NCBI RefSeq assembly: GCF_963676685.1
Contig: NC_092344.1
Location: 121,272,001 to 121,336,000, forward strand
Source of the DNA: Mytilus edulis
Taxonomy: Eukaryota
DNA length: 64,000 nucleotides
Direction: 5' to 3'
Shown in pieces: positions 20,601-53,387 of the stretch. The position numbers and the translations under genes are program-made. Positions within the stretch are counted from its first letter, which is position 1. Every line of letters starts with the position of its first letter. Below the pieces are notes generated by a model that was not told where the DNA came from, searched no databases, and saw only the letters and a list, made by a program, of their open reading frames with translations.

Positions 20601-23600
20601 GATGAAATCATAATCTTTCAGTCAGTTTAATTGAAGTCTGGAGCTGGCATGTCAGTTAACTGCTAGTAGTCTGTTGTTATTTATGTATTACTGTCATTTT
20701 GTTTAGGCTTAAATTAAAATATTGTTTGTTTGCAGTTTACCGACCGAACCTTGAAAATCCTCCCGACTGTGAAAATTTTATTGCTTTAAATTTGAAGAAA
20801 TTTTTTTTTTAATACATCTATTGACGCGATCCGGAACTTTGGGTCCTTTCCAGAAATGATTTAAAGTCTGGGTCAATTACGCATTTCAAGTTCGGTTTTT
20901 CTTAGCTTCCCGTCAAGCGTTCATGTGACCATTTAATGATAAAGCACATGGAAATTGTTTACAGGTATCCATGAAGTCACGGAGGAGTACTTTACGCTGT
21001 CGTCTCGTGTCAATTTTAAGACAAATAACAAACAAAAGTTTATTATAGTAAACTGTTTATACAGATTCAGGCACATGTAATGATGTGTGATGATATCATT
21101 GACGATGATGCAGCGGATATTCATAACTGACACGATAACCATTCTGTCTCAAACAAATCGGTATAGAATCTGTGGAGCCTGACTTTATGGAACCAATTTC
21201 TACAAATCGTTGTGAAGACGACAAAGATGAAACCACTCCTCCGTGACTTAAATCTTCATGGATATCTGTAAACACCCCTGTACGGAGGAAGGGCTCATTT
21301 GAAATGTTAATGGATATAGATCATGCCAAATCAATAAGAAGCAACCCTAACTACACAAAGATGTAGAGAAAATGAATGGTTAGCTTGAAAAATAAATATA
21401 CTCTCTATATTAAATCTATCTTCGATTGCAATGAGTATGCTTCTTTAGGATAAGGGGGGCTGCCCCACTAATTGCAATTATTCTCTTTCTTACAATATTA
21501 AATGTACCCAAACTGTGTGGCCTGTGTGATTTCAATTAAAACATGTCCTCAGGAGCTATGCTGCAAATTTTTTTTATGCATTAAAAACATTTCAGTACAG
21601 ACCATTTACTTTTAATGGGGTGCTATGGATTTCACCCCAAACTTTAGATTTCTTTGGTTTTCATTAAAGCCTGGCAAAAATATAACCTTATCACATATAA
21701 TTAAATATTGATAGAAATATGAAAACAGTCGAATGTCTTAATACTTTTTTTTCAAGTTGCCTTTTTTTCAATTGGGGAAGATTCAATGGTTATTTTTTTT
21801 TATTAAAAATACACTCTTTAATACATTGTCTTATAAATCTTTAATATCTACATTTTTCTGATGAAAATACTCATGAAAACATTCTCATATTCTAGTCAAG
21901 AAGCATACATGTCTGAATATATTTCTTTAAAACAGTTGAGTTCTAGTCATAATAACATTCCTTGTTTATAAGTGTTCCAGTATTTAATAATTATACCATA
22001 TTTTATGTCATAAATTGGATAATGACACTATGTTAAAGTTTCAGTTTTGGTTAAAAAGTTTTTTATCTGAAAATGCCTGTTCATTTGATGTTGGTTTTCA
22101 GCATGTCCAGTGTTTGTTGTTTTAAAATGTTTTTTTTTCTTCACAAGAAACTTGGTTTAGTGTACATGTAATTGCTTGTTTAAACTATTTTGGCTGATAA
22201 AATAAAATATTTTTCCTACCTACCGACCCTTCAGTCTGAAGGTACAGTCGGAAAACTGCAAACAAACATATTTTTAAGGTTGGCCTTATTTTCTTTGGTT
22301 ACATCTTCTGATATCAGACTCGGACTTCTCTTGAACTGAATTTTAATGTGCGTATTGTTATGCGTTTACTTTTCTACATTGGTTAGAGGTATAGGGGGAG
22401 GGTTGAGATCTCACAAACATGATTAACCCCGCAGCATTTTTGCGCCTGTCCCAAGTCAGGAGCCTCTGGCCTTTGTTAGTCTTGTATTATTTTAATTTTA
22501 GTTTCTTGTGTACAATTTGGAAATTAGTATGGTATTCATTATCACTGGACTAGTATATATTTGTTTAGGGGCCAGCTGAAGGACGCCTCCGGATGCGGGA
22601 ATTTCTCGATACATTGAAGACCTGTTGGTGACCCTCTGCTGTTGTTTTTTATTTGGTCGGGTTGTTGTCTCTTTGACACATTCCCCATTTCCATTCTCAA
22701 TTTTATATTAAAGAAATTTATCCTGTTGAACTTACTTTAAATAAAGCTAATACTAACAATGACCACTGCCCTTTCCTCGATCTTGATATCTATATCACTA
22801 ACGGAAAGCTGAATACTAAAATTTATGATAAAAGAGATGATTTTTCATTTCCTATCGTTAATTATCCATTTTTAGATGGTGACGTTCCCTTGTCACCATC
22901 TTACGGTGTTTATATATCTCAACTTGTACGATTCGCTCGTGTATGTAACAATGTTTTAGATTTTAACAAGAGAAATTTATGTATTACTGAAAAATTATTA
23001 CACCAGGGTTTTCGATATCACAAACTAGTCAAAACATTTACTAAATTTTATCATCGGTATAAGGACATCATTCGTAAATATAGCTCAACATGCAGACTTC
23101 TTATACGTTCAGGTATTTCACATCCAATTTTTTATGGAAATATTCTTTATAAAGCACAAAGGTGTCAGTATTCACCTCAAAAACTAACAAAACCTTTGAA
23201 TAGACTAATTAAGAAGGGATATAGTTACGATACTGTTGTCAGGTCATTAAAGATTGCATATTTTGGCGTTAATATTGATTCACTTATAGGGTCTTTTCAT
23301 CGGAACTAAACACATTTATTCAAAAACCAGTTGTTGGAATGATACGGGTTAAGTTCTTCTCATATATGTTATGATGGTATGATACTAAACCCCTAACGGG
23401 AAGGATTGTGCCTGATGTTCATATGGTAAAATCATAATCTTTCAGTCAGTTTAATTGAAGTCTGGAGCTGGCATGTCAGTTAACTGCTAGTAGTCTGTTG
23501 TTATTTATGTATTATTGTCATTTTGTTTATTTTCTTTGGTTACATCTTCTGACATCAGACTCAGACTTCTCTTGAACTGAATTTTAATGTGCGTATTGTT

Positions 23601-26600
23601 ATGCATTTACTTTTCTACATTGGCTAGAGGTATAGGGGGATGGTTGAGATCTCCCAAACATGTTAACCCCGCCACATTTTTGCGCCTGTCCCAAGTCAGG
23701 AGCCTCTGGCCTTTGTTAGTCTTGTATTATTTTAATTTTAGTTTCTTGTGTGCAGTTTGGAAATTAGTATAGTGTTCATTATCACTGATCTAGTATATAT
23801 TTGTTTAGGAGCCAGTTGAAGGACGCCTCCGGGGGCGGGAATTTCTCGCTACATTGAAGACCTGTTGGTGACCTTCTGCTGTTGTTTTTTTCTATGGTCG
23901 GGTTGTTGTCTCTTTGGAACATTCCCCATTTCCATTCTCAATTTTATATGAAATCTAAAATTAAAAGTTCAAACATACCATTTAATTTTTGTAGATGATG
24001 CTCATTTATCTGGTTGACATCCTCTTTATGTGTACACAATCTGGTTGCTAGGATACCATCTCTCTGTATGTTTTGTTTTGCTGTAGCTCTCAAGGTCGTG
24101 TAGACATAGTCAGGACACCTATAAGAATAGTACATAGATGTCAACAGATACAATCAAACACTTGATACAACAATCTCAAGATTTAAATCTACAAAGCTTT
24201 ATAAATACAATAGTTTTAATGCAATACTGTTAACGTTGAAATCCAAGGGACTGACAAAAGAATTTGAATTAAGACTTATCCAAGGTTTAACTCATCCAAG
24301 TTCATATGTGTCACCAAAAATTTAGAATGCATGAAATACCTACGAGGTTTGTTTAAACTAGATATATTTTTTTTTTTAGATATGATAATTTATGATTGAG
24401 TAATCAATTTTCCTAACATTCATCAGTCACTATTAATTATGGAATCTTGAATATAAAATCTTTTTTTACCTCCATTTTGTCAAGTTCCCCCACAAGATTC
24501 TTGAAAGAAAAGGTAGAGGGTATTGTAGAAAAGATATTCCAATGATATTCTGTGCAAAACAAATAAATTGTTGGCAGTTCATGCAGTTAGACCATCTAAG
24601 TATTTTCTATTGTCATACTACAAACCTTCCTAGCCTAATTTGTTGAAGAACATCTATAAATGATTTATCTGACTGTCTTCTTACTTCTGTTAGTTCTATA
24701 TTCATCTGAATACATTTCTTCCAAGCCTGAGTCTGAAATTATTAAACAATAATCTGAATACATTTCTTCCAAGCCTGAGTCTGAAATTATTAAACAATAA
24801 TCTGAATACATTTCTTGAAGCCTGAGTCTGAAATTATTCAAAAAATACTTCTATATTTATAACTAATGTTTCAAAGTTCAATAGGTGTCTCTTAGTTATT
24901 TTTATGGGTCAGTTTCTTGCATCTGGGTTTTTACTGTAAGCCAAGCTCTTAATCAAAATCCATCCTTTAACCTTTATGTTGATTATGAGAACAGATCAAA
25001 AGTCATATAAGTTTTTGAAGTGCATGTAAGACAATGAAGTCCTTTCAGCAGAATCATTTATTATTCATTAACACACAGTATAAGAGAGATTATTTAACAT
25101 GATGCTATTTCTTGAACTGAGCTCTACCTGAAAACAGAAATTGACTTTTTCTTTGCCTTTGGTAACAGGAGGTAACTGAAGAAAATCTCCACACATTATC
25201 AGCTGTATTCCACCAAAAGGTTGGTCATTCCTTCTTATCACTCTGTTAACAAACAATGTGCAGCTAGATTATTCAAACGTTCAAAAGAAGTTTACCTATA
25301 CATTACCTCAATTTAACTTATTTTCAATCATATACAATGCAGTAAACTTAAACAATCTTATCGTGTAGACAAATTTTCTTTAAATACTAATTTTCTTAAG
25401 TAAAGAACCAAAATGTAATACATACATGTACTAAAAATAAATGAAGGAATGGTTGTATATACACAATATTTATTACATATACTACATAAATAAGGTGCTG
25501 AGCAAAACCAACAACAACAATTTATGAACCTTTGTTAGCACAGTCACATATATGTAACCCACGCCCAACATTGTCATGTGGTAAACATAATCTTCAAAGA
25601 CTCATAACTCCTACAAAAGTCTACTGTTAAAAGTTTCTTGTTGATTTACACATCTACTTATCTACAAAGTTTCATGAAATTCTGTTTTGTAGTGTCAGAG
25701 AAGTTGTGATGACCAACTGTTACAGAAGTATATTTAGACCAATATTTTCAGTTCAATTGAACATGACTTCTAAAAAGAGAATTGAATACTAATTTTCTAC
25801 ATAGTTTGTCGAAATTCTGTAACTTTTTTTCAGAGAAGTTGCAATGACAAGAACAGGACTGACTAAACGAAGAACAATCCAAAATCCTTGGACCCTTTGC
25901 ATGGGGTATAATTAGATAACCAATATTATTTCACATGACTTATTTACAGGAAATGTTCATTATCCCATGTAGGAACCACTGAGACTTATTTATAATCTCA
26001 CTTTATGTTAAAGTTACCTAGCAACAGCTTCTAATTTTTCAAAGAATTCTCCATCCACCATAGATATTTCATCAATAACTAAATGTTTACATTTCCTCCA
26101 TTGCTGAGCTACCTGTGCTCGTGATGCTAGTTGTACACAATGCTCTAATGTACCCCTTCCTGATCCAATACCTACAAAATAAAACATAACTTGACAAATG
26201 ACAGCATTTATCTTATTAATAAGAACAAGAGTTTAAATTTATAATCAGCTGAGTTTATGAATATTTTTTAATGCAATTGTATAATACAAATGTATACTAT
26301 TTCAGGAAAGCCAATATTAATTCTTTGCTGAGCTACCTGTGTTCGGGATGCTAATTGTACACAATGCTCCAATGTACCCCTTCCTGATCCAATACCTACA
26401 AAAATTACACAATACGGGAGAAATTACAACATTTATTTTGTTGTTAAAAATAAATTGTATGATGTATGGTATAAATAATTTAACAACTTGTAAGTATATA
26501 TAAGCTATCAAATGACTTTCTAGTGCAATGTCTAGCTGACTAAGTTTATAATCAGCTGAGTCAATTAATATTGTGTTTATAATGCAATTGTTTATTTCAG

Positions 26601-34037: not shown

Positions 34038-37000
34038 ATGACATCATTTTCTTGGAAGAAGAAAACAGGCAGTAGTGTAAAGCGATCTGTATCAACAGCA
34101 TTTGAGGAAGACACTAAAGATGACAATGAACAGTTAGAAGGTGTTGATTGGCTGACACTTGTTCCTCACAGAAAAATTGTTTGTCTTGAAGATGCGTTAT
34201 CTAAAAGTGCCAGACTTAAAAATGAAGGGTCATTACTGGCTGAATCTGAAAGGTAAAATTGCAAGATTTAGTCTGAGATAGGTCGGGCATCCCACAGCTT
34301 TTGTTTGGTAAATATTGCATAAATTGCAGTCAATAATAGATGAAGCTACTAAGCCTTTTAGTTCAATGGCTTGATAGTTATATCTTCCAAGCCTCATCTT
34401 GAGAGTTCAAATAACGTAAAGCATTGTGGTAAACACTTTTGAGATTATATTCATGCCCATGTCAAGCTATTGATTTATAACAATATAAACAACTATTAAT
34501 GTTACAAAAGGATGTGTATTTGTTTAACCATACTTGTCAAGATCTTTTTTTTTTTTTTATAAAAAATTACATACAAGATGAGTATGGTGGTTATATCTAT
34601 CTGATCAAAAAAAGTTTGAGTGCAAATACAACTATCAAATGATGTGGATGTTAGCAATTATAGGCAACTGTACAGACTTCAACAATTAGACAGACCAATA
34701 TTTTACAGTCAGCTATAAAAGGCCTGATATATGCATGATATGTGCAACAATTCAAACTAAAAAAATAACATCCTGATTTATAACAGAACATTTTACAAAA
34801 TAACAGATACAATGTATAACAGATATGAACGAACAACAACAACTGAACTACTGTCTCCAGACTTGGGACAGGCACATAAAAAATATGACAAGGCTGAACA
34901 TGTGTGTAAGCACTCAACAGCCCCAAATTTGGAACAGTGGTGTAACTGCACAACATAAGAACAAACTAAAAATCAGTTGCAGTTGGCTTTATTGATATAC
35001 AAAGATGGAGATATGGTATGATTGCCAATGAGGCAACTATCCATGTGACTAAAGTTCAAATGAAGTAAGTTGATTTCAAAAAGAAAACAATGCTTAACTT
35101 TCAGCAATGTTTGGTGTTCAAAACAACTTTGATTTAGGCATTGCTTGGGCTTTTAGATATCAGAATAGTCCTAAAATATACTAGAAAATGATAAAAAAAA
35201 CATTAGTGGCTGAATTTGAAAGGGGTTTTAGAAAGAAAACCAAGACTATAGAACAGAGATAAAGATGAATTAGTTGCTAAATTTTGACAGATTTTATTGG
35301 ATGAATTGTAAGACATAATAGTGTCCTGGGAAATAGTGTCCATATGGACACTTTTTCCTAGAATTTAGGTATTCAATAATGTCCATTGCCATGGAATATT
35401 GTCCTCTAAGTGGACACATTGTCATAGCAATATCTATGAAATAGTGTCCACTCGACTACAAAATGTTATGAAATAGTTGCTATAAGAATCATGTATGTTT
35501 ATTTCCATAAATATTTTAGAATAAAAAGAAAGAAGGGATTTCATTTATATTTTTACTGAGTTTTGTTTTTTGTTTTTTACTATTTAATTTGTAAAGAGAC
35601 AATAAAACAACTTGAGAACAAAAAGAAAATAAAGGTGGCATGTTTGGCCTTTTTCTATAACTGATACAATAATGATTTTTTGTGATTTTTAAACTAACTT
35701 GTACACTTATAGGTACTGGGAAGCTATTAAGAAATGGGACGAGGCCATACAGTTTACACCTGAAGATGAAACAATCTATGAAATGAAAGCTCAGGTATGT
35801 TATTTTAATGTTAATTCTATATATGTGTAAAAACAATTATTTTCTAATCATGAATTAAATTGAACAGCTAACATCTCTGTTCTTTGGTCTCTAGTTGATA
35901 GTTATATTATTGGAAATCATACCACATCATCTTATTTTTATACAGATTAAAGTATAGTACATGATTTATATAGATTCCCCAAAGGTTGTAAATAATATGT
36001 GATATTACTTCTATCAGGAGTTAAGGTATATTGTTTCTCAATAGCAGAAAGATTGAGTTGGTTATTTTTCTCCAGTATGTTTTAAAAAACCCATATTTAG
36101 ATAGGACTAGGTTGTTAACATTGATGTGATGTCATAATGAATTAGCTTCCAATCACAGCATATAATGATACTGTTTTATTGTGTCTCACAGAACTATTTA
36201 ATACCACTAGGCTATAACTGTATAGAGGATTTAGAGGTAAAAAGAGTAGGATCAATGCTTTAAGACAAATGAGATGTTATAAAGTCTCACATAACTAATT
36301 AATACCACTAGGCTATAACTGTATAGGGGATTTAGAGATAAAAAGAGTAGGAACAATGCTTTAAGACAAATGAGATGTTATAAAGTCTCACATAACTAAT
36401 TAATACCACTAGGCTATAACTGTATAGGGGATTTAGAGATAAAAAGAGTAGGAACAATGCTTTAAGACAAATGAGATGTTATAAAGTCTCACATAACTAA
36501 TTAATACCACCAGGCTATTACTGTATAGGGGATTTAGAGATAAAAAGAGTAGGAACAATGCTTTAAGACAAATGAGATGTTATAAAGTCTCACAGAACTA
36601 ATTAATACCACCAGGCTATTACTGTATAGGGGATTTAGAGATAAAAAGAGTAGGAACAATGCTTTAAGACAAATGAGATGTTATAAAGTCTCACAGAACT
36701 AATTAATACCACCAGGCTATTACTGTATAGGGGATTTAGAGATAAAAAGAGTAGGATCAATGCTTTAAGACAAATGAGATGTTATAAAGTCTCACAGAAC
36801 TAAATAATACCACCAGGCTATTACTGTATAGGGGATTTAGAGATAAAAAGAGTAGGAACAATGCTTTAAGACAAATGAGATGTTATAAAGTCTCACAGAA
36901 CTAATTAATACCACCAGGCTATTACTGTATAGGGGATTTAGAGATAAAAAGAGTAGAAACAATGCTTTAAGACAAATGAGATGTTATAAAGTCTCACATA

Positions 37001-40000
37001 ACTAATTAATACCACCAGGCTATTACTGTATAGGGGATTTAGAGATAAAAAGAGTAGGATCTATGCTTTAAGACAAATGAGATGTTATAAAATGAAGGGA
37101 ATGTGAAAAACATTTGTTGCAGGATAAAATAATTTGTATCTAATAGGAAATATTGATACATTTCTGATGAAGCCTTTTACAGTACTATAATCTGAACTCA
37201 GTCACATACATTCTAAAGTAACAGTAAACACATTTCTTTATTTCTATTGCTCTTTCATTTACAGTAGATTGGATTGCAAGACCATGAATCCATTTTGTTA
37301 TTTACAATAAGGTCTTAATTTCCTTGCAGCTTATATATCCTGTTGATTATGACTCGTTTGAAATACTTCTGAGAAATATTCAAAATGCAACAACAGGCGC
37401 ACTACATAGAATATCAATTGTAACTTCACTTTCTGATTGGTAAATGATTGTATGGCCTGCAGTTTCATACATTGAATACATTTATGTTTAAAACTATTTA
37501 TTAATTGAAGTTGGTTTTCTATACAAAAAGAAAAGTAGTAAACTTAGTTGAAGTTGTAACCAGCTTAGATGCTAATATTAACCCTTAATCAAATTTAATA
37601 GTCCTAGATTGTTTTGACGTCTAGGTCCCACAGCATCACCTACTCCCTAAAGATGCTATCAATGTTCAGAGTAAACTCAGACTAATGTATAACTGTCTTT
37701 TCACAGGTTTTATTAGCATTATGTGAAGTTTTTCCTGCCCTAGCTATGGCTGAAAAGGTTGTGAAATTAAAACCAACATGGTGGACTGGTTATCAGACAT
37801 TAGGGCGTGCCCAGCTCGGTCTTGGGGAAGTCAGACAGGTATAATACAATGCTTTGTTTTTAAGGTCAGACATTAGGGCGTGCCCAGCTAGGCCTGGGTG
37901 AAGTCAGACAGGTATAATACAATACTTTGTTTTTAAAGTCAGACATTAGGGCATGCCCAGCTAGGCCTGGTGAAGTCAGACAGGTATAATACAATACTTT
38001 GTTTTTAAAGTCAGACATTAGGGCGTGCCCAGCTCGGTCTTGGGGAAGTCAGACAGGTATAATACAATACTTTGTTTTTAAAGTCAGACATCAGAGCGTG
38101 CCCAGCTAGGCCTGGTGAAGTCAGACAGGTATCATACAATGCTTTGTTTTTAAAGTCAGAAATTAGGGTGTGCCCAGCTAGATCTGGGGGAAGTCAGACT
38201 GGTATAATACAATGCTTTGTTTTTAAAGTCAGACATCAGGGTGTGCCCAGCTAGGCCTGGGGGAAGTCAGACAGGTATAATACAATACTTTGTTTCTGAA
38301 GTCAGACATTAGGGCGTGCCCAGCTAGGCCTGGGGAAGTCAGACAGGTATAATACAATACTTTGTTTTTAAAGTCAGACATTAGGGCATGCCCAGCTTGG
38401 TCTTGGGGAAGTCAGACAGGTATAATACAATACTTTGTTTTTAAAGTCAGACATCAGAGCGTGCCCAGCTAGGCCTGGTGAAGTCAGACAGGTATCATAC
38501 AATGCTTTGTTTTTAAAGTCAGAAATTAGGGTGTGCCCAGCTAGGTCTCGGGGAAGTCAGACTGGTATAATACAATACTTTGTTTTTAAAGTCAGACATT
38601 AGGGCGTGCCCAGCTTGGTCTGGGTGAAGTCAGAAAGGTATAATACAATACTTTGTTTTTAAAGTCAGACATTAGGGCGTGCCCAGCTAGGTCTGGGTGA
38701 AGTCAGACAGGTATAATACAATACTTTGTTTCTGAAGTCAGACATTAGGGCGTGCCCAGCTAGGCCTGGGGAAGTCAGACAGGTATAATACAATGCTTTG
38801 TTTTTAAAGTCAGACATTAGGGCATGCCCAGCTTGGTATGGGTGAAGTCAGACAAGTGTAATACAATACTTTGTTTTTAAAGTCAGACATTAGGGCATGC
38901 CCAGCTTGTTCTGGGTGAAGTCAGACAAGTGTAATACAATACTTTGTTTTTAAAGTCAGACATTAGGGCGTGCCCAGCTAGGTCTGGGTGAAGTCAGACA
39001 GGTATAATACAATACTTTGTTTTTAAAGTCAGACATTAGGGTGGCCCAGCTAGGTCTGGGTGAAGTCAGACAGGTATAACACAATACTTTGTTTTGTTGT
39101 AAAAAAATAATAAGATTGTGATATTCTGTTGACAATGATTATAATTAATTTGTCAAACAAATAGAAATTACAGAAACACATTTATTGGTGTTTTATTTAC
39201 ATACATAGAAACCAACTGCTTACATATTGAAAGTTTAGTCTGTATCTCAGATTCTCTAAGCATTTGGTTTATAGGTAAGCTAATCATAGATAACATGAAA
39301 AAAATTTGTATGCCAGACACATGTTTCCTCTAAAAGACTGATCAGTGATGCTCAAATCAAAGGATTTCAAGGTGTACATGTTTATCAGGTATGTTTCATT
39401 TGATCTTGACACCATTTATATACTAGATCACTGAATCAGGCTCACACATGTTTTTGGTTTATATATTTACATATTTCTTTCAGAAAATTTAAGCTGTAGT
39501 TTTAACTAACTAACTTATCCTCTTCATGCTGACTGGCATATAAGGCTGGTAACAGGTCTCTCCACTGTTGTCTGTCCTTTGCAATCTTCTCCATTGTCCT
39601 TCGTCATGTTTCTTTTGGTCTTCCTGTGTTTCTTTTACCTTCGAATGGTGTCCATTTCAGAGTTTTTTAGGTGATGTTATCCTGGTCTTTTCTTTAGGTT
39701 TGTCCTATTGATCTGAATCTCCGTTTTATGGTTGTCATTAGATCTTTTTGTCCTATTCTTTTGTACAGTTCTTTTTTTGATATCTGCTGGCCAATATATC
39801 TTGCATATTTTCCTAAAACATTTGGTGTGGAATCCAGAGAGTCTTTGGCTGTCTTTCTGTGTTATTCTCCAGCATTCTGCACCATACAATAAGGTAGAAA
39901 GAACATTATTCTGGTAGATCTTTATTTTTGTTTTTTTTCAGTTATGTTGCCTGTTCGTCATATTTTGTTTAGTTGGTGAAAAGATGCCCTGGCCTTTTGG

Positions 40001-41809
40001 AGTCTGTTTGAGATGTCTTTTTCTGTTGCATTGTTTTTGCTGAGAATACTGCCCAAATAGTTAAAGTTGTCTACTTCCTCTAGTAGTTCACCACTGGTTT
40101 ATCGCATTGAAGGTAGGTGTAAGTTGCATTGTTTTTGTTTTCTTCTTGCTGATGTTCAATCCAGTTTGGTGTGTTTGCCTAGATCTAGGGTTTTCTTTTG
40201 TAGATGGTCAGCATTGCTTGAAAGTAGAGCTATATCATCTGCAAATTCAAGATCTTCCAGCATTGATCATGTTGATGTAAAGTAAGTTCCACCTAATTCC
40301 ACAAATTGTATTTCATATTGCTTGCCTCATTACCCAATCACTAATGACAAGGAAAAGCAGTTCAACCACAATTTATTTATGGAATGATAAGGTATAAGTT
40401 TAATTTGGCAGGTTTCATGAACTTTCATCTGAATTTTTAACCCTTTTTCATTGTTCATTGGTCAAGGTTAATTGTTCATTGCTTAGTCAGTTTATACGAT
40501 TCTTTAAACAATACATTTGGTTTTTGAGGGGAATGTAGGGTGTACAGTTTATCTGGCAGGATACATTATTTTGTTTTTCATATACTTCAATTTGTTTATG
40601 GACTCATCACAAGATGTGTGTGTTCATCTGGCAGGATTGATAGAAACATTCTGTCATTGCATAACAAAAATATTGCCACTTAGTAGGAAATAATATGTCA
40701 CTCGTGTAAGCCTGAAAGGAAGTAGGAAAAACCAGTTGTAAATAATTTTAATTGTATATTATTGCGAATGTTTTAAATGTAATTTGTAAATAGCCAAGAG
40801 AGAACTTTCTGTGTTGCCCGACACTGCGTAAAGTTTTTACACGGAACAAATAACATTCAGCATTGAATCTGGTTCCTGACCTGGAAGAAGATACATTGAA
40901 TCTGGTTCCTGACCTGGAAGAAGATACATTGAATCTGGTTCCTGACCTGGAAGAAGATACATTGAATCTGGTTCCTGACCTGGAAGAAGATACATTGAAT
41001 CTGGTTCCTGACCTGGAAGAAGATACATTGAATCTGATTCCTGACCTGGAAGAAGATACATTGAATCTGGTTCCTGACCTGGAAGAAGATCATTGAATCT
41101 GGTTCCTGACCTGGAAGAAGATCATTGAATCTGGTACCTGACCTGGAAGAAGATACATTGAATCTGGTTCCTGACCTGGAAGAAGATACATTGAATCTGG
41201 TTCCTGACCTGGAAGAAGATACATTGAATCTGGTTCCTGACATGGAAGAAGATACATTCACCAGAGAGACAGAGCAATACACACACATTACAATGTTAAA
41301 AACAGAAGGCATTTATATTTACAATCTCCCAATATTTTTAATTAAGAGACTGGTACCCCGCTACTTGAGGTATATTATACCCATTGAATCTTTTTAAGAA
41401 AAGCTGGATCCATAAGAATAATAGAAGTTTCTATATTGAAGGTTAATATACAATATGTTTTATGGGAATTAATGCTATGAAATAATTATTTCAGGCAATA
41501 AAGAGTTTCTCAAGGGCAGTACATTTAAATCCAGCTGATGAAGAGTTATGGAAGGAAGACTTTTTATGGTCATTCTCATTACTAAAACAAAAAGCTGATC
41601 AACAGAAAATGTTACAACAAGAAATGGATAATTCTAAAGTGAAACTAACAGAACTGAGTGATGAAGACACTGACATAGTGACAGAAATTAGTGAGGAGAA
41701 ACAAGGAACAAGTGAGAAAAATACAAGTTTATCTACAATTGATAAACATCCACCTGAACCAGAAATAAAATATCTACCTCAGAATTATGTACATATGAGA
41801 GATAAATGA
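34038..41809 (+). CDS. TTC33: Tetratricopeptide repeat protein 33, 247 aa
   Basis: Exons 34038-34252, 35713-35794, 37707-37838, 41495-41809; phases 2,0,0. Motifs MTSFSWKKK, RYWEAIKKWDEAIQFTP, YEMKAQVL, QTLGRAQLGLGE, ELWKEDFLW match TTC33. Confidence 0.94.
36183..37091. repeat. 101-bp tandem repeat, ~9 copies, in a TTC33 intron
   Basis: AATACCAC landmarks at 36301, 36402, 36503 and onward; copies nearly identical. Confidence 0.95.
37793..39095 (+). repeat. 72-73-bp tandem repeat, 18 copies, made of the TTC33 exon end and its 5' splice site
   Basis: Units start at 37793, 37866, 37939 ... 39029; the first unit overlaps the coding exon (QTLGRAQLGLGEVRQ|GTATAA). Confidence 0.96.
39503..40350 (-). 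mobile_element. 5'-truncated, decayed RTE-clade LINE
   Basis: LEDLEFADDIALLS, FNYLGS and YGAECWRIT..KIYWP in shifted frames; short (TAGT)n 3' tail. Confidence 0.8.
40861..41258. repeat. 33-bp minisatellite, ~12 copies
   Basis: Unit CATTGAATCTGGTTCCTGACCTGGAAGAAGATA; two units are 1 nt short. Confidence 0.95.
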
Positions 41810-42429: not shown

Positions 42430-44275
42430 CTCGTGATCGTATAATTGTAGTTTGCGTTGTGTTTTGAATAGAGAAAAAGACGTCTATACAAATGGATGAT
42501 TTAATGCTGGTAAGATGCAATGACGTTAATACATAGCAACCATGACGTTACATATAGAGAGCGGTAACGCGTATAAGTACATGTATGAATCCCGCGTAAT
42601 GTGATTGTCTCTATTTATCCTCGACATACTCGGGGCCGGGAATTTGTGCAATTAAAGTCTCAATGAGCAATTTATCTAAATTACGATATTTATCTATAAA
42701 ATGAAAAGAAATGAAATATTTGAAACTTTAAAGTCTATAAATCACATTTAAAACTATCTCTGAATCAAGTTGCGATTGAAAATTGTTCTCAATTATAATT
42801 ACAGTCTCTGATTGCGGTTTTGTAAACGAACACTCCTTCTAAGTATTTGCGATTCATCATTGTCGGTTTTTTTTAACGCGATGATGAGGTATGTAGTGTA
42901 TGCGCTGTGAGTCCTCCTTCTCTTCTATCTTTTCGATGAAACCACGTTTTTTCTGCTTTGTACAGGATGAAAATTCTTTGATGTTCTGTTTTTCCGTGTT
43001 AAGTTTGTCGTTTTCTTGTATACCAAGGGACTTCAATTTCCAAAATCTCTCAATATCGTAGTCCTCTTTTGTGTGACTAGATAATATATGCATCATGTGT
43101 GAATCGCGTTGTACTCTTGTACATGTAAGTGGTCCAGATAACAAATATCCTATTTTTGAGCTCATCGCTGTCGGTCCGTCGCCTCGAACGATATCATCCA
43201 TGATTGCATCCCAGTAATGGTCTGCTCCAATGAGTAAAGAAATATCAAAGCTGTTATCCTCTGATAACGGGTGGGCTAGTTTTAGTCCTTTCAAATAATG
43301 TAGTTGCTGCGAAATGTACCTGCGGTTATTCTGAATCGGCGCTGCTATGGTAGGTACAATCAATACCTGTAAAGGTATTTTCTCTCCTGAGTCGGCTTCT
43401 AAAAACACTGTGGCTTTATTCATGTGACGAACGTTCTTGTCCGAATTTCCGAAGTCGGATATGTTGAGGGTTTCCTTTCCGTCTGGCTTGACGTTCAACT
43501 TGTCGGCTATTTCCTGCGTCATAAATGATCGTTGTGCTCCTTCGTCGAAAAGGATGTGAGCGTCGGCGCACTGATTCTGTGACCATATTGGGGCTATTGC
43601 TGTTTTCAAAAAGACGGTCGAATTTTCCTGTTTAGCAGATGTATCCATGATTGGCGTGCTGTTTTCTGTATTACTTGTAACATTCTGACTCTGTGAATTT
43701 TGAACTGAAGTTTCATTGCATAAACTAGTGTGGTGCTTACGTTGACATTTACGGCATGTGTTTTTCGACCTACATTCTGATATTCTATGGTTACCTAAAC
43801 AATTGAAACATAGGTTTCTCTTCTTAACAATCTCCATTCTTGATTTGCTGTCGGTGAACTTTTCACAGTCTGCAGGGAAATGTTGATCATTGCAATAAGT
43901 GCACATTTTACTTTGAGAATAGTTTATAGATTTTGATTTATTTACGTAATACCCATTTTTCTTACTAATTCCGGCATGGAAACTTGCGGTAGGTATATCA
44001 TAAGATTCACTCCCATCAGTGCTAGCTTCTTGAATAGATATTTCCCGTTGTATTGCCTTTCTTAGATTTCCAAGGGTCCAGTCGTCGTTTCCGTTTTCTC
44101 TTGTGATATTACTTTTAACGCTAATAGGGAGCTTACCAAGCGTAACTGGGATTAACAGGGAACCATACATATCTTGGCACTGTCCTAAAGATTCTAGTCC
44201 ACGGATATAAACCTCTGACTTATCCGAAAAATTACGGATACTATCTAATGTGTATGAGGGTGCTGGCAAATCTAA
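42430..44275 (-). mobile_element. BEL/Pao LTR retrotransposon fragment (gag-protease, start of RT, partial 3' LTR)
   Basis: ORF 42857-44269 has three Cys/His knuckles (CTYC..HFPADC, CFNCLGNHRISEC, CRKCQRKHHTSLC), an aspartic protease motif LFDEGAQRSF, LLIGADHYW and HYIPHH. CCGGCCCCGAGTA|TGTCGAG marks a probable LTR start at 42626. Confidence 0.85.
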
Positions 44276-45343
44276 AAAAACTCAGGCCAATCAACACGGC
44301 TGACATGGCTAAAAATAGAACATAGGGGTAAAATGCATTTATGTCTATTACTTTTAGAACAGTTATAAATAGAGAAAATCTGAAAGAAACAAAAATGTTC
44401 AGAATAATGAACTCTCCTACCAATTGTCCATAGATGTCAAAACTATAAGATAAATTCTTATAGGAGCTATTGGCAATAAATGACAAATTTTACCTTTTTT
44501 TTTCATTTTTGCCTTTTATCATGAAAACTAAGATATTTAGAGAGAAAACATTTTTTTTCGGTTATGCCTTATATGATTTAAATTATAATAGTTAAATTAA
44601 CACTTTAAATCACACGAATGGTTAAGCATTCAAGATCTATTAAAAAAAAGTCAAATTTTGCCAATTTAGTTAGTGGACTGTCACTCTTCATAGGTGTGAA
44701 TGCTCTTAAATGAGTTTTTTTTTACTCTTTGTTATGACGTCTATTCTTGTCTACGATGTTGGAGAGTGTCCTTTGTTTGATATGCACATAGACTAAGGTG
44801 AGTGACATAGGTTCGTCAGAGGCTGTAGTTGTTATTGTCATATCCAGTCACCCAATCGCGTTGCATTATGAGCATTTATAAATATGTCTTATCGCCCAAC
44901 TAGATTACCCTGATGTTTTGCGTTTAAAATATCGTGCCCTTAATCCAGGTTGATTGTGATTGCAGAGCATCAATCATTCATTTGTCCTCGTACTGAAATA
45001 TTTCCTGTCAAAAAAATATTATTTTCCTTGTGAAACCAATTTGATCCGACCAAAATGATGATGTGCAGATTTTTCTAAAACAAAAGAAAAATCACTACGT
45101 GACATAAATACAGCACAAACAAACGCAAGAACATTTATAACAGAGAAAAGCACAAACAAATAATATGGTTATCCTTTTTATTATAATGGAGAGTCCTCTT
45201 GGAAGTATAAACATGCTTCATACAAAAAGCAAACGTGCTTTTAAAACCCTACAAAATTACAAAAAAAAACAGTCAGTTCTGTTAGTAACAAATTTTTACA
45301 ATTCGACAATATCCGTATTTCAAATCCAGTTGTGCAGTACTAG

Positions 45344-46888
45344 CTACTGGTTTGGTTTGTATAACGAATAAAAGCACATAAAACATTCGAAACGGTAAAA
45401 CATAACAAAAGGAAACCAGAATGTATCCGAGTTTTCTATATGTATACTACTATAGTATGCTGGATTTTCAAATTTGTAGACATATTGAACCACGATGAAA
45501 GTATCTGAAATCCAATAACCGAAATTAATAAAGCCAATTAATAGACATACATATTTCACTGAGAAATACCGTGATCTTGTACATATAATCGTGTATTTTT
45601 TCATCTGTAAAATATATACGGTTTGAAGATACAGAACAATAATCCTTAAGATACCTTTTATAATGTATAAACTTCGATATTTTGTGACAACTGGAAGTAT
45701 TTTAGTCATTAAGTACAGAGTATAGTATCCCGTCGTTATTATAAAGCTAAGAATCAACAGAACATTTCCTATGTCGTATGAAGAATTCTCAATACGCGGC
45801 CTACACTGATGTAGTACTGCATGAAAACACACAACAAGAGCAAGTAGTAACACAGTATGTTCGAGTATGGTAGTTATTGAGGACATCCAGAAAAAATCAG
45901 CTCCCATTACCCCGAATAATCTGAGTACTTCAATAACTAGTCTAGGTAAAGATATAAGGCCACTTATTAGTATAATACAATATGTTAACACTAACTTTCG
46001 TGCAATTAGTCTACGCGTGACCCTTGTTTGGATTTGTAACAATGCTGTCATTTCCGACGTTTCATAAGTAGCATTGTTGTCCTCATTTATGTTACATCGC
46101 CTATTCGATGTCCTTGGCCATATTCCAGACAAAAATATCAAGCATAGTAGCGGGTACTCAGCGAGCATGGGTTCTGTAAAAGGACTAACGTTATGTAACA
46201 GTTGACGTATTGAAAAAGATGTGTTGCTTTCTGTACATCGATACGTTGTGTTTTGAGAAGTGTCCGAAACATTTTGTCTGCTTGTAGCATGGTACGTCCA
46301 CGACGAAATATTTGTGACAACAATAATGATCAAACCATAAAAGGTAAACAAAGAATTGACGAATTGGTATTTTGAAAAATGATAGATAAAACATGTTTGT
46401 ACCACATAAAACGAAAGACACGAAATATCATATAATACTGCTCCTTCTATACTGTCGTTGAAACGGACAAACACTTTACATTCAACATGGAAAGCTATCT
46501 TGAGGATACGAAACACTACGCATCCAAGACAAAACAAACATAAGAATTTTAATTTAAGGGATTTGCTTTTATCGTGATACTCAGGATCTAAAATATATCT
46601 CTTTCGTATTTGTTCTCGTATCCCAACTGAGATACAGGACAAAATTCCAATGCAGTTCAAAACAATCAGAAATGGTCGGGATATCTCAGGTGCTGTGCTG
46701 CTGTTTTGCTCAAACGTGTTGCAAATGTACATTACTTCAGCCAGCATGACTACTAAACTCGTTAGCATTATTAATCCTGAAATACTTCCATCATGGGATA
46801 TGTAATTCTGGTGTATTATGTTTTTACAGTTTCCAGCTGTCATGGGAAGAATGAATATGGCTTTACACCAGTCTTTAGCTTTGTTCAT
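45344..46888 (-). CDS. Otopetrin-like (OtopLc-type) 12-TM proton-channel family protein, 514 aa, single coding exon
   Basis: Motifs FCLG, VQTCFI, TNISSW, PFTEPMLAEYPLL..IW, LQTVYI, NFGYWISDTF, PFVMFYRFE. Splice acceptor ~20 nt upstream of the ATG. Confidence 0.85.
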   Translation of the reverse strand: MNKAKDWCKAIFILPMTAGNCKNIIHQNYISHDGSISGLIMLTSLVVMLAEVMYICNTFEQNSSTAPEISRPFLIVLNCIGILSCISVGIREQIRKRYILDPEYHDKSKSLKLKFLCLFCLGCVVFRILKIAFHVECKVFVRFNDSIEGAVLYDISCLSFYVVQTCFIYHFSKYQFVNSLFTFYGLIIIVVTNISSWTYHATSRQNVSDTSQNTTYRCTESNTSFSIRQLLHNVSPFTEPMLAEYPLLCLIFLSGIWPRTSNRRCNINEDNNATYETSEMTALLQIQTRVTRRLIARKLVLTYCIILISGLISLPRLVIEVLRLFGVMGADFFWMSSITTILEHTVLLLALVVCFHAVLHQCRPRIENSSYDIGNVLLILSFIITTGYYTLYLMTKILPVVTKYRSLYIIKGILRIIVLYLQTVYILQMKKYTIICTRSRYFSVKYVCLLIGFINFGYWISDTFIVVQYVYKFENPAYYSSIHIENSDTFWFPFVMFYRFECFMCFYSLYKPNQ

Positions 46889-47497
46889 CCTGAAGATCTA
46901 GTTTCCTTCTACAAATATACAATGGATGTTTATACATTATATCTTACAAAGATATCTTATGATTGAGCAAACCCACAATAATTTGGGATGATATATGGTC
47001 TTTTGGAAGGGTAACGAGATTTTGCTCTACAGGTGGCAACCGACATACCTTATGGTAATTTGAAGTAAGTACAAATTCGGCGAGAGCCTCGTTCGGGGAT
47101 GTCATATTTCAGGGGATTGTAGAAACAATCATTTGATCATATCCGTGACAATCTGTGACACATATATTCAATAACAACTCGTGATTACGCCGTCCGTTTA
47201 ATATTCAAAGAATGAGACAAAGTCACCGTTACCTGCCTTGCAAATTTAGATTCAGTCAAAATGTCATAATCGGGAGCAAGAAATCGTCGGACCACCGTAT
47301 TGGTATCCAAAGATCTAAGAGCGGGAAATATATCGGTAGTGAGATGAATCACCGACACATCAAACGATTCGTGATGGTTAGTGAACTTATGTTGTTTCCA
47401 TTTTAGTCGTTCTTCATAATTTTGTTATGACAGTTTTTTGTAAGGAGCACACCCCTGTTGACAAAGTCCTTTTTGGAGGGATCTAACACTAGCATAA

Positions 47498-50400
47498 GGA
47501 GAATAATAGCATAATAGAGAAGGAATAAGATGGCCGCCAAGATAGAAAGGAGTTGAACTTCAGCTCTGCAGTATTTGGCATTTTTAAGCTGGATTTTGAT
47601 GAAGAATTCTATTGAAAGTTATATCATTATATTCAGAATTGTTTGGACTTAATAGAAATCAAGTTATTTTGAAATTTCCTTGTTGGATGGACTTGTATTA
47701 GTGAAAATAAAATTTTGGATTCAGTGGAATTTACTAATATTGTATTTTGAACTGTTGTTTAAAATATAGAAAGTATGCCTGGGGATAGTAATCAGAAAGG
47801 TGTTAAAACTGTACAAACAATGTTGGCAGCTAAAAAGCCTGGAGCTAAAGAATCTTCACAAGAAAAACCACCAAAGCAGAACAAACGAACTCATTCAGAT
47901 GTAGCAGATGAAAGTTTGGAATGTACTGATAGTATGACTAGTATTCAAACTACTCTTAGTGAAATCAAAAAGGCCCTTCAGGTAACAGTTACTAAAGATG
48001 ATTTAAGTAGTGCATTTAATTGCTTGGTTCAACAAAAAGACTTAAAAGATATTGTTACCAACATTGTTAAACAGTTATTATTAACTTTTGAAAAGAATTT
48101 GTCAGAGAAAATTGAGGCAAAAGTAAGGGAGACAACTGGAAAGTTACAAGATCAGATGGATTCTCTGATGATAGACAATGAAAACCTGAGAGAACGTGTG
48201 AGGGCAAAAGATAAATCTATAGAGAAATTAGAAGAACAAGTAAGTGATAACAACAATAGAGCAATTGATGCCATAAAGCTTGGAAACTATAATGAACAGT
48301 ATAGTAGAAAGCATAACATCAGAATGCTTAACTACCCAGAAAGGCCCCATGAGGTATTGAGAGATGAGTTTGTCAATATGGTGAACAAAGAGTTGAAGGT
48401 AGATATTAAACCTGATGATGTACAGGCATTGTTAAAGTGCGCAATACTGAACTGAAAATTAAAATTATGAGACAGAAGAGAGGACTAAAAAATGACATCA
48501 AGTTCCATGATGATATTACACAGCGTAACCTAGGACTTATGACAAGATTAAAAAATGGTGAACATTTTGAAAACGTCTGGTTTTATAATTGCAATGTCTA
48601 TGCCAAGCAACAGGATGGAAGTAGAATTAGATTTGACTTATTTGACAATATTGAACAAAAACTGAAAAACAAAAACAAAAAAGGTCATTAGACATTCATT
48701 TCTTTATTTGATACATTGCTTAATATTTCATCACTGTAAAAAATTTGAAAGATAGTAATATAATTAAAACAATCTGGGCTGTGCATTATTATCAATTTAT
48801 TTATTTATAATGACTCTCTCTGAATTTGATTTAAATAATTTTAATTCATATTTGATTCAAAGTACTTTTTTTTATATATAATTCTATTTATTTTGTTTGT
48901 GTGAACCCTCCTTAATTTGAAGATAAATGTATATTTATTAAAGGGAGATAACTCAAAATATTTTACAAATCAAAGGGAGATAACAAAAATCTTTTATTCT
49001 TTTTACTTGTCATGAATCTCTCAACTAAATATACTAATTAATACATTGTCTTTACAATACAACTTTCTTTATATCGTAAATAATTAAAATGCCATACTGA
49101 TAATGAAATTTTGTTGTACAAAAATGACTTTACAGGTACCTATGCCAAAGTGTCATAATGTGTGTATGATTGTATAAACTATGATTGTGTATTTGTTTTT
49201 AAGTTACAATGTATCTGCTCAATTTTGAAATGTTGTTTTGTTTTATATGATAATGGATAATATTGTAACAGTGTTGTCTATGAATGTAAGGGGTCTTTTT
49301 TCTAATTCAAAAAAGAGAACAGATGTTTTTGATTGGGCGAAGGGCAAAAATGCTTCAGTAATTTGCTTTCAAGAAACCCATAGTAATAAAGATATTGAAA
49401 AAAAATGGGAAGAGGAATGGGAAAATAAATGTTTTTTCAGTCATCATAGTAACAAAAGTGCAGGTGTCAGTATTATGTTTAAAATAGGTCTTGATTTTGA
49501 AGTGCATAATTCTATTATTGATATAGATGGTCGTTATATTATTTTAGATTTATCCTTGTCAAATCAACGCATTACTCTTGTTTGTTTGTATGGATTTAAT
49601 ACTGATGAACCTTCATTTTTTAATGACATATATAAGAAAATGGCAACATTTTCAAATACTAGCTTTTTATTATGTGGGGACTGGAATGTTGTACAAGATA
49701 CAAACATAGACACTTACAATATTATTCATAATAGAAACCCAAACTCACGAAAAAAGATTGAAGAAATAGTAGAAAGTCTTGAGTTATTAGATCCTTGGCT
49801 GACTTGTTATCCAAACGATAGAAAATATACATGGCGTCAATGCTCACCCATAAAACAAAGTCGGCTTGATTTTTTTCTAGTCACAGAGGATCTGTTTTCA
49901 CTCATGAAAAATACTAGCATTATTCCTGGGTATAAGACAGATCATTCTGCTATTACTTTCACCTTTTCTGCCAGTTTAGCAAAGCGGGGAAAGGGATATT
50001 GGAAATTTAACTCCCAACTGTTACGAGATTTAGACTATATCAAAAAAGTTAAAACATGTATAAATGAGAGTATTTTAGAATATTATGAATCAGGCAACAT
50101 AGATGATCCTTTAAATGTTAAACTCTCATGCAATGATCAAGTATTTTTTGAGTTAATAAAAATGAAAATTAGATCTTTGACTATTGGTTACAGTATTCAA
50201 AAAGCGAGAGAGGAAAAAGCTGCAACACTTTTACTTGAAAATGACATTCAAAATTTGGAAAATTGTATGAACATATCTCCTGATGGTCAAATTCATGCAG
50301 CTTTAAACCAGAAAAAGTAAGAATTAGAAAATATTAGAGAAAAAAAATTTGAAGGTGTTTTTTTAAGATCCCACGCTAACTGGCAAGAGAATGGGGAAAA

Positions 50401-53387
50401 GTGTTCAGAGTTTTTTTGTAAATTAGAAAAGAAAAATTTTATTAAAAAAACGATAACTGAGCTCATAGACGAAAAAGGAAAACATATCTCAGATCAATCT
50501 AGAGTTTTACAAAAAGAAATGAATTTTTTAAAAACATTATACTCAAGTAAAAATCTGGAATGTGATGATGAATCCTTTTTCAAGCACAATGTTAAACTCA
50601 CAGAAGATGAGAAGGATTTGTGTGAGGGTAATATTTCTTTTAAAGAATGTGCAGAATCACTAAAATCTATGTCAAATGGAAAGAGTCCAGGCTCAGATGG
50701 GTAGAATTTTACAAAGTCTTTTGGCGAGATATTGGACCTTTTCTTTTTAGATCGTTACATTTTGGCTATGAAAATGGGGAATTTTCTAAATTTCAGTATC
50801 AAAGTGTCATTACATGTATTCCAAAAGAAGAGAAAGATAGACGTTATTTAGCTAATTGGCGCCCAATTAGCCTTATGAATACTGACACCAAGATTGCTTC
50901 TGCTGTGATTGCTAATAGAATAAAACCTGTTTTACCATCTATTATCAGTGACTGTCAGAAAGGCTTTATAAAGGATAGATTTATGGGTGAGAATACGCGT
51001 TTATTGTATGATTTGATGCACTATTTAGAAAAACATAACAAAACTGGTCTTTTACTACTAGTAGATTTTGAAAAGGCTTTTGACTCTATTGAATGGTCTT
51101 TTTTGAAAAAAGCATTGAAGAGTTTCAATTTTGGACCATCTATATGCAAATGGTTTGAAGTATTTTATTTGAAAGCATCAAGTTGTGTTATAAATAATGG
51201 CCATCTTTCAAGCTTCTTTAATTTGGAGAGAAGCTGTAGACAAGGTGACCCCCTCTCCCCTTACCTTTTTATTATAGGCGTTGAGCTACTTTCTATGAAA
51301 ATAAGGTCAAACCCCAAAATAAAGGGAACTTTTGTTCATGAAAATGAATCCCTTTTGAGTCAATATGCTGATGACACTTTCCTTGTTTTAGATGGAACTG
51401 AAACCTCTTTGAGAGAGACTTTAAATTGTTTTGACTCTTTCCAAAAAGTATCTGGGTTAAAAATTAATTCTTCTAAAACTAAAGCTGTTTGGGTTGGGAA
51501 TAAAAAGTATTCAGATCTGATTCTCTGTCCTGATTTAAAACTTCAGTGGTGCTCTTCAAATTTTAAGCTTTTGGGAATTGAATTCTCTTTAGATCTTGAC
51601 AGTATGCCAGAAATTAATTTCTCCAAAAAGATAAAGGAAGTGTCAGGCATTGGCAACATAGAAAATTAACCCTAATGGGAAAGATTACTGTTATTAAGAC
51701 TTTGGCACTTCCAAAATTAATTCACCTGTTGACTGCACTACCCAACTTGCCAGAGTCAAAATTAAATGAATTGAATACTTTATTCTTTCAATTCATATGG
51801 AATGGAAAACCTGATCGAATTAGACGAAGTACTTTAATTGGAGATATTCCACAAGGAGGTTTAAATATGATTAATATCCATTATTTTAATATATACCTTA
51901 AGATTGGCTGGATAAAGAGGTTTTCATCCAATTTATATGGTAGTTGGCAATCATTGTTATTAAAAAGCCTTGAACAGTATGGTGGAGAAAGAGTATTGCA
52001 TTTTGAAAAGGAGAAACTCAGAGAAATCTCTGATAGTCTTAGCAATCCTTTTTGGAAGGATGTATTTTTTAGCTTTCATGTCGCAAGGCCTGCTACCAAT
52101 ATCTCTGTTCAAGATATTTTGTCATTAGATATTTTAAATTTTGCACCTGTAGTAGATTTTCCGTACTTTATTCAGTGGCAGAGAAGGGGAGTGCAGTCTT
52201 TGTTTGACCTTATTAACTTAGAGACTAAGGACTTTTATAATTTTGATCAGATAGGACAAGACTTCAAACAAATAATTTTCTAAAGTATTATGGTCTCATT
52301 GCAAAGATTCCAAAGTACATGAGAGAACATATTAAAGAAAACATTGCTCATGTAAATTTTGAAACTTTTAACTGTATTGATAATTTTTTGGAAAGATTAT
52401 TGTGTAACAAAAAGGCAAAGTTTGTATACAAAGATCTTGTTGACAGAAATGTGCAACTGCCAACAGAAAAGTTCTTACAATGGGAGCAATTACTAGGTAT
52501 TGAAATTGCAGATTGGTCAAAATATTATATTATTTTAAGAAAATCATGTAAAGACACTTATTTATGAACTTTTCAATACAAATTTTTACATAGAATAATT
52601 GCAACAAACACTTTCTTGTATAAAGTTAAACTTAAAGATTCAAAGCTTTGTACTTTTTGTAAGATTTCTGATGAAACCATGGAGCATTTATTCTATGAAT
52701 GTCCAATAACACATTTTATATGGCAATCTTTTTCACAAAAATTGAAAAGATATTTTGTGAACTTTACATTATCTAAGAAGCACATTTTTCTTGGTCTTCA
52801 AAATGAGAGTTTACTGTTGAATTTGATCATTATTATTGCAAAGAACTATATATACAAATGTAAGTTGTATGAAAAGAAACCAAGTATTATAGGACTATTA
52901 GCAAAAATAAGAAAATATCAGGAAAATGAACATTATATAGCAAAGAAAAATGGTACCACACCTTATTTTCAAAAATTCTGGGCCCCAGTAGATTACATTT
53001 TTACTGATTAGTAATAATTACTTTTGATTCAAATCATATAAAATAAAAAAAAAATGAAACTTAATTTATAAAGAGCAGATCTTTACAAGGATAACATTTT
53101 TCTTTGCAATACACAAGTTGATATATATGTTTTGTTAACGCAATTGCGAGAGTGTGTGTGTGTATGTGTGTGTGTTTCTTTTCCCCTTTTTATTATAATG
53201 TTAATATTCAAATAATATATATTCACAGTAGAAGAAAAAAAATGTAGTCAATTTTTTGTTGTATATATTAAACCCCTTAACACCATAGTCAGGTGGTGAT
53301 GTAAAGGGATTGTAAAAGCCTGACTACTGAAAAACAAATAAAAAAAAAAAAAAAATATTAAAAAAAAAAAACAAAAAACAAAAAAAA
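47498..53387 (+). mobile_element. Full-length but inactivated L1/Tx1-clade LINE (~5.9 kb)
   Basis: 13-bp TSD AACACTAGCATAA (47485-47497, 53388-53400) and poly(A) tail. ORF1 47775-48691 (coiled coil, EQYSRKHNIR; frameshifted). ORF2 ~49253-53011 with APE (MNVRG, FQETH, GDWN, SRLD, TDH), RT (WRPISL, DFEKAFD, RQGDPLSP, QYADD) and CCHC (CTFC..HLFYEC), broken by stops and frameshifts. Confidence 0.95.

Follow-up and report, generated by a model that had tools for sequence, protein, structure and literature searches.

Minisatellites whose first monomer spans a splice donor have been described in the human genes F7, 6-16, CBS, LAMIN B2 and PDGF (Borensztajn et al. 2006, PMC1557585; this paper and those below are cited from excerpts of their text). 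According to these excerpts, F7, LAMIN B2 and PDGF use the authentic donor alone, while 6-16 and CBS add two pseudo-sites, and 50 F7 constructs led to the conclusion that the most upstream functional donor wins. The Introduction of the same paper gives 15-20 copies for CBS intron 13, 25 pseudo-sites for 6-16 intron 2, 10-15 copies of 100 bp for LAMIN B2 and 16-18 copies of 81 bp for PDGF intron 4, and an allele table for the 31-bp repeat of CBS is found in PMC2630376. Invertebrate counterparts are the amphioxus "mirages" of Adh3 and of the globin genes BflGb6 and BflGb9 (Ebner et al. 2010, PMC3087553), which the excerpted text proposes as raw material for new exons and introns and for which it sets out an exon-gain model.

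The window analysed here, a stretch of 64,000 nucleotides from Mytilus edulis, contains an array in the TTC33 gene that belongs to the same class of exon-intron-border minisatellites, comprising the F7/CBS type and the amphioxus mirages. Its 18 head-to-tail units of 72-73 bp fall in the class range of tens to ~160 bp, unit 1 (37793-37865) spans the real border, the donor is repeated in the intron and the authentic site is the one mainly used. With a probability of about 0.85, a TTC33 exon truly ends in unit 1, the spliced RNA found uses the first donor and the 17 further copies are probably silent passengers removed with the intron; the array is real, ordinary for its class and likely silent. 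No report of such an array in mussels, or on Mytilus TTC33, was found among the papers listed by a literature search and judged by title and start of abstract. Its significance as it stands is small, a mussel case joining those already described in human F7, CBS and amphioxus Adh3.

Among the described systems, the 37-bp VNTR of human F7 intron 7 is similar in having its first monomer on the border, the donor repeated in the intron and the most upstream donor in use, as far as the excerpted source goes. It differs in that the F7 unit holds 4 exon bases in 5-9 copies, compared with 46 exon bases and 18 copies in TTC33, and in that the TTC33 joints add acceptor-like AGs, so that each copy resembles a micro-exon. 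PDGF intron 4 comes close to TTC33 in unit size and copy number and, in the same excerpts, uses the authentic donor alone, whereas the two pseudo-donors reported there for CBS and 6-16 have no counterpart seen in TTC33 at low depth. The amphioxus mirages, as described in the excerpts of PMC3087553, share with TTC33 tandem border copies in an invertebrate (donor- and acceptor-type in amphioxus, many with AG/GT signals), normal splicing (established there by RT-PCR) and concerted evolution. In contrast, the border unit of the mirages is said there to escape homogenisation, while unit 1 of TTC33 has a twin (unit 4) and shares silent haplotypes with other units. The features of the locus are as follows.

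34038..34252, plus strand: first coding exon of TTC33, ATG at 34038
35713..35794, plus strand: second coding exon of TTC33, 82 nt, its end seen in RNA as the loose end before 37704
37707..37838, plus strand: 132-nt coding exon of TTC33, both ends in phase 0, the final 46 nt belonging to array unit 1; RNA ends at both borders
37836..37844, plus strand: authentic donor CAG|GTATAA, cut after 37838; reading past it meets an in-frame stop, TAA at 37842-37844
41495..41809, plus strand: final TTC33 coding exon with acceptor at 41495 and stop codon 41807-41809, its start seen in RNA as the loose end behind 37839
37793..39095, plus strand: minisatellite of 18 units of 72-73 bp, each made of the last 45-46 nt of the exon, the first 22 nt of the intron and a 5-nt joint
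37852..39032, plus strand: acceptor-like joints, a T-rich tract followed by AAG|TCAG|, no use seen
37909..39079, plus strand: 17 downstream donor copies, no use seen
37912, 37984, 38057, 38129, 38202, 38275, 38347, 38420, 38492, 38565, 38638, 38711, 38783, 38856, 38929, 39002 and 39074, plus strand: GT of the donor copies

The four-exon reading frame that joins 37838 to 41495 encodes 247 residues and matches P0009, the Mytilus edulis RefSeq protein XP_071150411.1 (tetratricopeptide repeat protein 33-like), with 0 mismatches, in agreement with the gene identity proposed by the initial annotation, which had been made from the sequence alone. A Pfam TPR at residues 127-157 spans the 37838->41495 junction. 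Proteins named TTC33 from M. californianus, M. coruscus, M. trossulus and M. galloprovincialis, all in the same cluster, have 245-247 residues and carry no insert. Likewise, 0 RNA-derived TTC33 proteins with an insert were present among 3 + 5 + 5 cluster members, and none appeared among 120 listed of 296 homologues, judged by length and name; the sequences inspected were those of Mytilus and of P0003-P0005, the other listed homologues being judged by length and name. The intron (37839-41494) contains no AATAAA or ATTAAA polyadenylation signal. Two further minisatellites lie in TTC33 introns, at 36183-37091 (101 bp x 9) and 40861-41258 (33 bp x 12); they are 97-98% identical and clear of exons.

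Tandem Repeats Finder reports the array at 37793-39095 with period 73, 17.9 copies, 91% matches and a score of 2137, and splitting by hand resolves it into 18 units, as initially annotated. The exon-derived part measures 46 nt in 12/18 units and 45 nt in 6/18, and each unit is closed by a 27-nt spacer that begins with GT and is, as had been pointed out, too short for an intron. Among the 17 unit joints, 14 end in TTTTTAAAG, two (before units 8 and 14) in TTTCTGAAG and one (before unit 2) in AAGG; a second AG, 4 nt downstream at each joint (AAG|TCAG|), had been overlooked. The donor GT is present in 18/18 units. The 9-mer of the unit-1 donor, CAG|GTATAA, is found in 11/18, units 5 and 10 carry GTATCA, and the altered donors named in the initial annotation (GACTGGT, GAAAGGT and ACAAGTG) are those of units 6, 11, 12, 15 and 16. 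In the Arg-codon CpG (37806-37807 and the same columns of the other units), TG occurs in four units and CA in four, changes that would fit methyl-C deamination in a gene body. On folding two-unit stretches (computed without a shuffle control), neighbouring units pair with each other, a result left out of the evidence.

Units differ pairwise by 0-14 changes. The claim that units 5-6 recur as 10-11 was accurate for the first pair, which is identical, and approximate for the second, which differs at 3 positions; since units 3 and 4 also nearly match units 8 and 9 (2 differences each), the duplicated block is larger, about five units. A search of the organism's own genome with the exon plus first unit returned at least 18 matches, all inside the array, a lower bound because very common words are skipped. 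Runs of organisms B and C contain the array as well, and in RNA run X23 it carries a joint variant absent from the window. An independent DNA run of another sample (X17, organism C) contains the unit-to-unit joint and 45-nt units; its summed contig depth over the unit is more than tenfold, a figure that is not a copy number, and its array contig ends at 37816, short of the G run. The notion that the array arose in assembly has a negligible probability: the units differ among themselves and both the DNA of X17 and RNA reads of another label cross a unit joint, so that this notion is refuted, exact copy number aside. Likeness to a CRISPR array, which had also been remarked upon, is superficial and was rejected, whole units including the spacers being near-identical copies of a host exon-intron border and not unique spacers.

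The array is a splice-site minisatellite grown from the TTC33 exon end, as had been proposed, but the simple microhomology origin suggested for it would not account for the unit. The word TCAGACA does occur twice per unit (in unit 1 at 37793 and 37831, 38 nt apart), yet recombination between the two words would yield a 38-bp, exon-only unit and not one of 73 bp, which likely needed a more complex step such as a template switch. Behind the last unit, the T tract is followed by unique intron sequence; at each joint five other bases stand there, and these resemble the bases preceding the second TCAGACA at 37831. The array may have started when the exon-intron border was duplicated once, a short joint being copied from a template, and would then have grown and been reshuffled by unequal crossover and conversion, silent variants being swapped with the coding unit 1.

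The pattern of variation gives no indication that the donor copies are kept by selection, and this candidate was rejected. Variable columns make up 5/9 of the donor (-3..+6) against 16/64 of the remaining unit (Fisher p 0.11), the wrong direction for donor selection, and the invariance of both GT columns has a chance probability of ~0.5. The donors show no stronger conservation than the remaining unit columns. This bears on the proposal that the array is a selected regulator, acting as a U1 decoy or as an NMD rheostat through which copy number would tune TTC33 output. Such a role could draw on the 13 CAGGTA words in the 1.3-kb array (compared with 0.24 per kb in the background), on the in-frame stop met on extension to any later donor and on the presence of the array in the runs of organisms B and C. 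However, measured against the U1-pairing consensus the donor copies match at 4-6/11 positions, below the other TTC33 donors (7 and 8), no extended junction was seen in the RNA described below, and the weak expression of TTC33 would supply too little RNA to titrate U1. The regulator proposal is therefore left unsupported and appears very improbable.

Whether the copies could act as exons was judged from joints and frames. The two AGs at each joint define possible cassettes of 45/46 nt or 41/42 nt. The 11 downstream 46-nt units stay in frame when the second AG is used (42 nt, a 14-residue repeat) and the six 45-nt units when the first is used; in all 17 downstream copies one cassette reading is therefore open to the normal stop while the other shifts the frame, a result that is partly arithmetic. 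This in-frame reading of 17/17 copies, a point that goes beyond the initial annotation, means that inclusion need not be poison. The poison event envisaged earlier stands for exon extension, since passing the first donor always meets the in-frame TAA (GTA TAA) at 37842 and extension to any later donor places a stop in frame 67 nt or more ahead of the junction, but it does not stand for cassettes. By a crude count, the first joint AG is preceded by 9/11 pyrimidines before AAG, which ranks it among the highest 5% of 6530 background AGs, though with A at -3; the second has an average pyrimidine count, as has the real last-exon acceptor (5/11). The joints thus pass as acceptors by pyrimidine count, and sequence inspection alone leaves cassettes open. 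In human data the branch point usually lies 19-37 nt from the acceptor (PMC10078293, excerpted). Donor, branch point and tract are all packed into 27 nt, so that the branch point of a cassette would fall on or next to the preceding donor copy and probably overlap it.

RNA was examined by aligning raw reads of four runs (X21-X24, organism B; 6-18% of each run read) to 37300-37865, the exon plus unit 1, where a cassette would appear as a joint going back from the donor. Use of downstream units was thus judged from go-back joints and loose ends on exon plus unit 1 and not from mapping to the full array. Joints with fewer than 3 reads per run go unlisted, mates are possibly counted twice and contigs drop rare forms. 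The samples carried no NMD block, so stop-carrying forms would be depleted, and organism C, which is not the source of the raw reads, holds more of the window's words than organism B. Expression of the TTC33 stretch is weak (2-38 reads per 1.1-1.8 Gb). X24 gave 38 reads, of which 16 lie over the exon end; 14 of these continue into the last exon and 0 enter the spacer. Of the 145 nt possible at most, the loose last-exon ends have a median of 56 nt; half or more of these junction reads therefore reach the unique part of the exon. X23 gave 22 reads, three with a long last-exon end and about four in the spacer, while X21 (6 reads) and X22 (2 reads) listed no junction and are too shallow. Exon-to-exon joining is consequently seen in 17 reads over 2/4 raw runs (X24, X23). 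A go-back joint from the donor to 37793 or 37797 was listed in none of the four raw runs (at least 3 reads), and the only backward links are two sets of 2 reads of unit-to-unit read-through in X23, representing unspliced array. Spacer depth per copy relative to the exon, if 18 copies are assumed, is ~4% in X21, ~1% in X23 and 0 in X22 and X24. The upstream intron had 0 RNA reads where the spacer had some, which is uninformative at such counts, and five molecules of X23 that start at 37839, probably clipped junction reads or duplicates, were left out of the evidence, as were the word shares of the 16 of 24 runs beyond the eight whose reads or contigs were aligned.

Assembled RNA gives the same result. 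One contig each from X5 (PacBio) and X3 (organism C) runs through three exons, and two abutting contigs of X2 (organism B) show the same joining of the exon to the last exon; the X3 and X2 sets additionally include short unspliced array pieces. A cassette or extension joint was found in 0/3 RNA contig sets and 0/4 raw runs, at low depth, and use of the copies as cassettes, as put forward initially, was not borne out. Membership in an alternative cassette or mutually exclusive exon cluster was not supported, no copy appearing as an exon in this low-depth material, though one does in the gene models CAG2186971-3. Exclusive use of 37838->41495, which the initial annotation had set against its own proposal, holds as far as the RNA goes. 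The upper bound on other junctions is 19% (0/14) for X24 and 16% (0/17) for both runs, or 34% if the two unassigned X24 reads are counted as such. Mature TTC33 RNA mainly uses the authentic donor, and minor use of other sites below ~20% is compatible with the data.

Within that bound, a leaky array would be one in which the nearest donor copies, or a cassette, enter a minor share of transcripts with no selected role, giving stop-carrying RNA by extension or 14-15 extra residues in the last TPR. The two pseudo-sites used in human 6-16 and CBS (PMC1557585, as excerpted) provide a precedent, and the in-frame cassette of every copy, the passable acceptor-like tracts and an RNA bound of ~16-19% leave room for it. 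Nevertheless, such joints are absent from the four raw runs and three contig sets, and in-frame forms would escape NMD and be visible if common. Of the three members of the cluster of 262-residue proteins discussed below, 0 come from RNA assemblies (Logan). Leakiness of this kind is therefore considered possible but doubtful. The preferred reading, a first-donor choice with silent copies behind it, accords with the RNA, in which the first donor closes the 132-nt exon, provided with a good acceptor, and is joined to 41495. By analogy with what was found for human F7, the donor lying most upstream among several identical ones would win, and a cassette of only 41-46 nt would have its branch point forced onto or beside the preceding donor copy. 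As unit-specific SNPs label every copy, the choice of the first donor in a mollusc can conveniently be tested on this natural array.

The four-gamete test fails for 21/169 column pairs, as expected from conversion and unequal crossover, to which recurrent mutation could add. Variation is highest in four columns, each the silent third position of one of four adjacent codons. Silent changes account for 25/48 minor-allele counts at 9/46 columns (permutation p 0.006), a post hoc figure from units that are not independent, and for 6/17 distinct events (p 0.10). Upkeep of a cassette-exon frame was considered with the same two values, together with donors that are not conserved and a 1-nt loss in 6/18 units. 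The exon part of unit 4 is identical to that of unit 1. In X24 the spliced exon has A at 37817 in 16/16 reads and two further silent changes in 8/16 each, and its second haplotype, with a phase deduced from the equal counts, matches units 13, 17 and 18. On the simplest reading, sequence would pass between the array and the coding end of the exon in one direction or the other, selection filtering what the exon keeps. The silent haplotypes shared between exon alleles and units, hinting at such exchange, are a second point beyond the initial annotation.

An exchange of this type could in principle move a frame-shifting 45-nt unit to first place, a downstream 46-nt unit then being spliced in to restore the frame; the array would be at once mutator and buffer of a coding exon, a repair kit and a micro-exon at birth. 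In another M. edulis assembly the gene models CAG2186971-3 (P0001, P0007) have 262 residues with an array unit spliced in, and P0001 and P0007 are reproduced exactly by a 45-nt first unit of the unit-8/14 type plus a 46-nt cassette, which for P0007 must be of the unit-9 type. The exon haplotypes of X24, the twin unit 4 and the silent excess by counts point the same way. A parallel exists in CBS c.844_845ins68 (PMC2630376, excerpted), a duplicated exon-intron junction where a damaging change is removed by alternative splicing and conversion with the exon has been proposed. That case is unlike TTC33 in being a single 68-bp duplication of the junction between intron 7 and exon 8 with RNA proof, set against an 18-copy donor array for which gene models alone speak.

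Losing one base where a G run lies in a repeat is an error typical of assembly or polishing. The CAG2186971-3 models are more likely to reflect such a one-base error, which a gene predictor would probably patch in just this way, than a rescued frame-shifted allele. The silent excess fades when counted by events, no indel at the TTC33 exon end was listed in the four raw RNA runs, and none of the three members of the 262-residue cluster is an RNA-assembly (Logan) protein. A partial M. galloprovincialis model (P0006) ends at residue 139 (37826), 34 nt inside unit 1; a break of the assembly within the repeat would explain this end better than a frameshift. Rescue of a shifted frame by a spliced-in unit is regarded as very unlikely; if true, it would present a minisatellite that edits a coding exon while cushioning the harm it does, and an exon gain under way. 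The 262-residue and shortened TTC33 models illustrate that border arrays can mislead both assembly and gene prediction.

Tandem repeats cover ~11% of the window bases. In the neighbouring PIF1 helicase gene (24704-24847, minus strand) an acceptor-type border repeat of 48 bp x 3 comprises intron end and exon start; by its sequence, only the third copy would continue into the exon, the first two meeting stops. Its unit has TTCAGA twice, akin to the two TCAGACA words of the TTC33 unit. With this triplication and the overall repeat content, border copies are not rare in the window. The 38-bp repeats at 12729-13455, which an insertion of ~230 bp interrupts, were rejected as PIF1 donor copies since they are positioned inside an intron. 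Two near-identical ORF fragments of a repeated element (19814-20485 and 22677-23309, plus strand) also lie in PIF1 introns, and a related piece is found at 54142-54534; the fragment tested had no Pfam match. Positions 1-2134 are occupied by a 28-bp satellite of ~78 copies with strong strand skew, and 3732-8237 (plus strand) by exons of a gene resembling seven-transmembrane receptors, the first of them matching PF00002 at E 3.9e-05. Directly downstream of TTC33, 42857-44281 (minus strand) holds a retrotransposon-like ORF with a DUF1758 peptidase. Two similar-looking ORFs of 517 and 347 residues in opposite orientation (45344-46897, minus strand; 58881-59924, plus strand) are hydrophobic and probably encode a multi-pass membrane protein, with no Pfam match at E 0.001. 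Between them, a LINE-like element in several frames (47763-53011, plus strand) contains an endonuclease (PF03372) and a reverse transcriptase (PF00078) after an ORF1-like frame.
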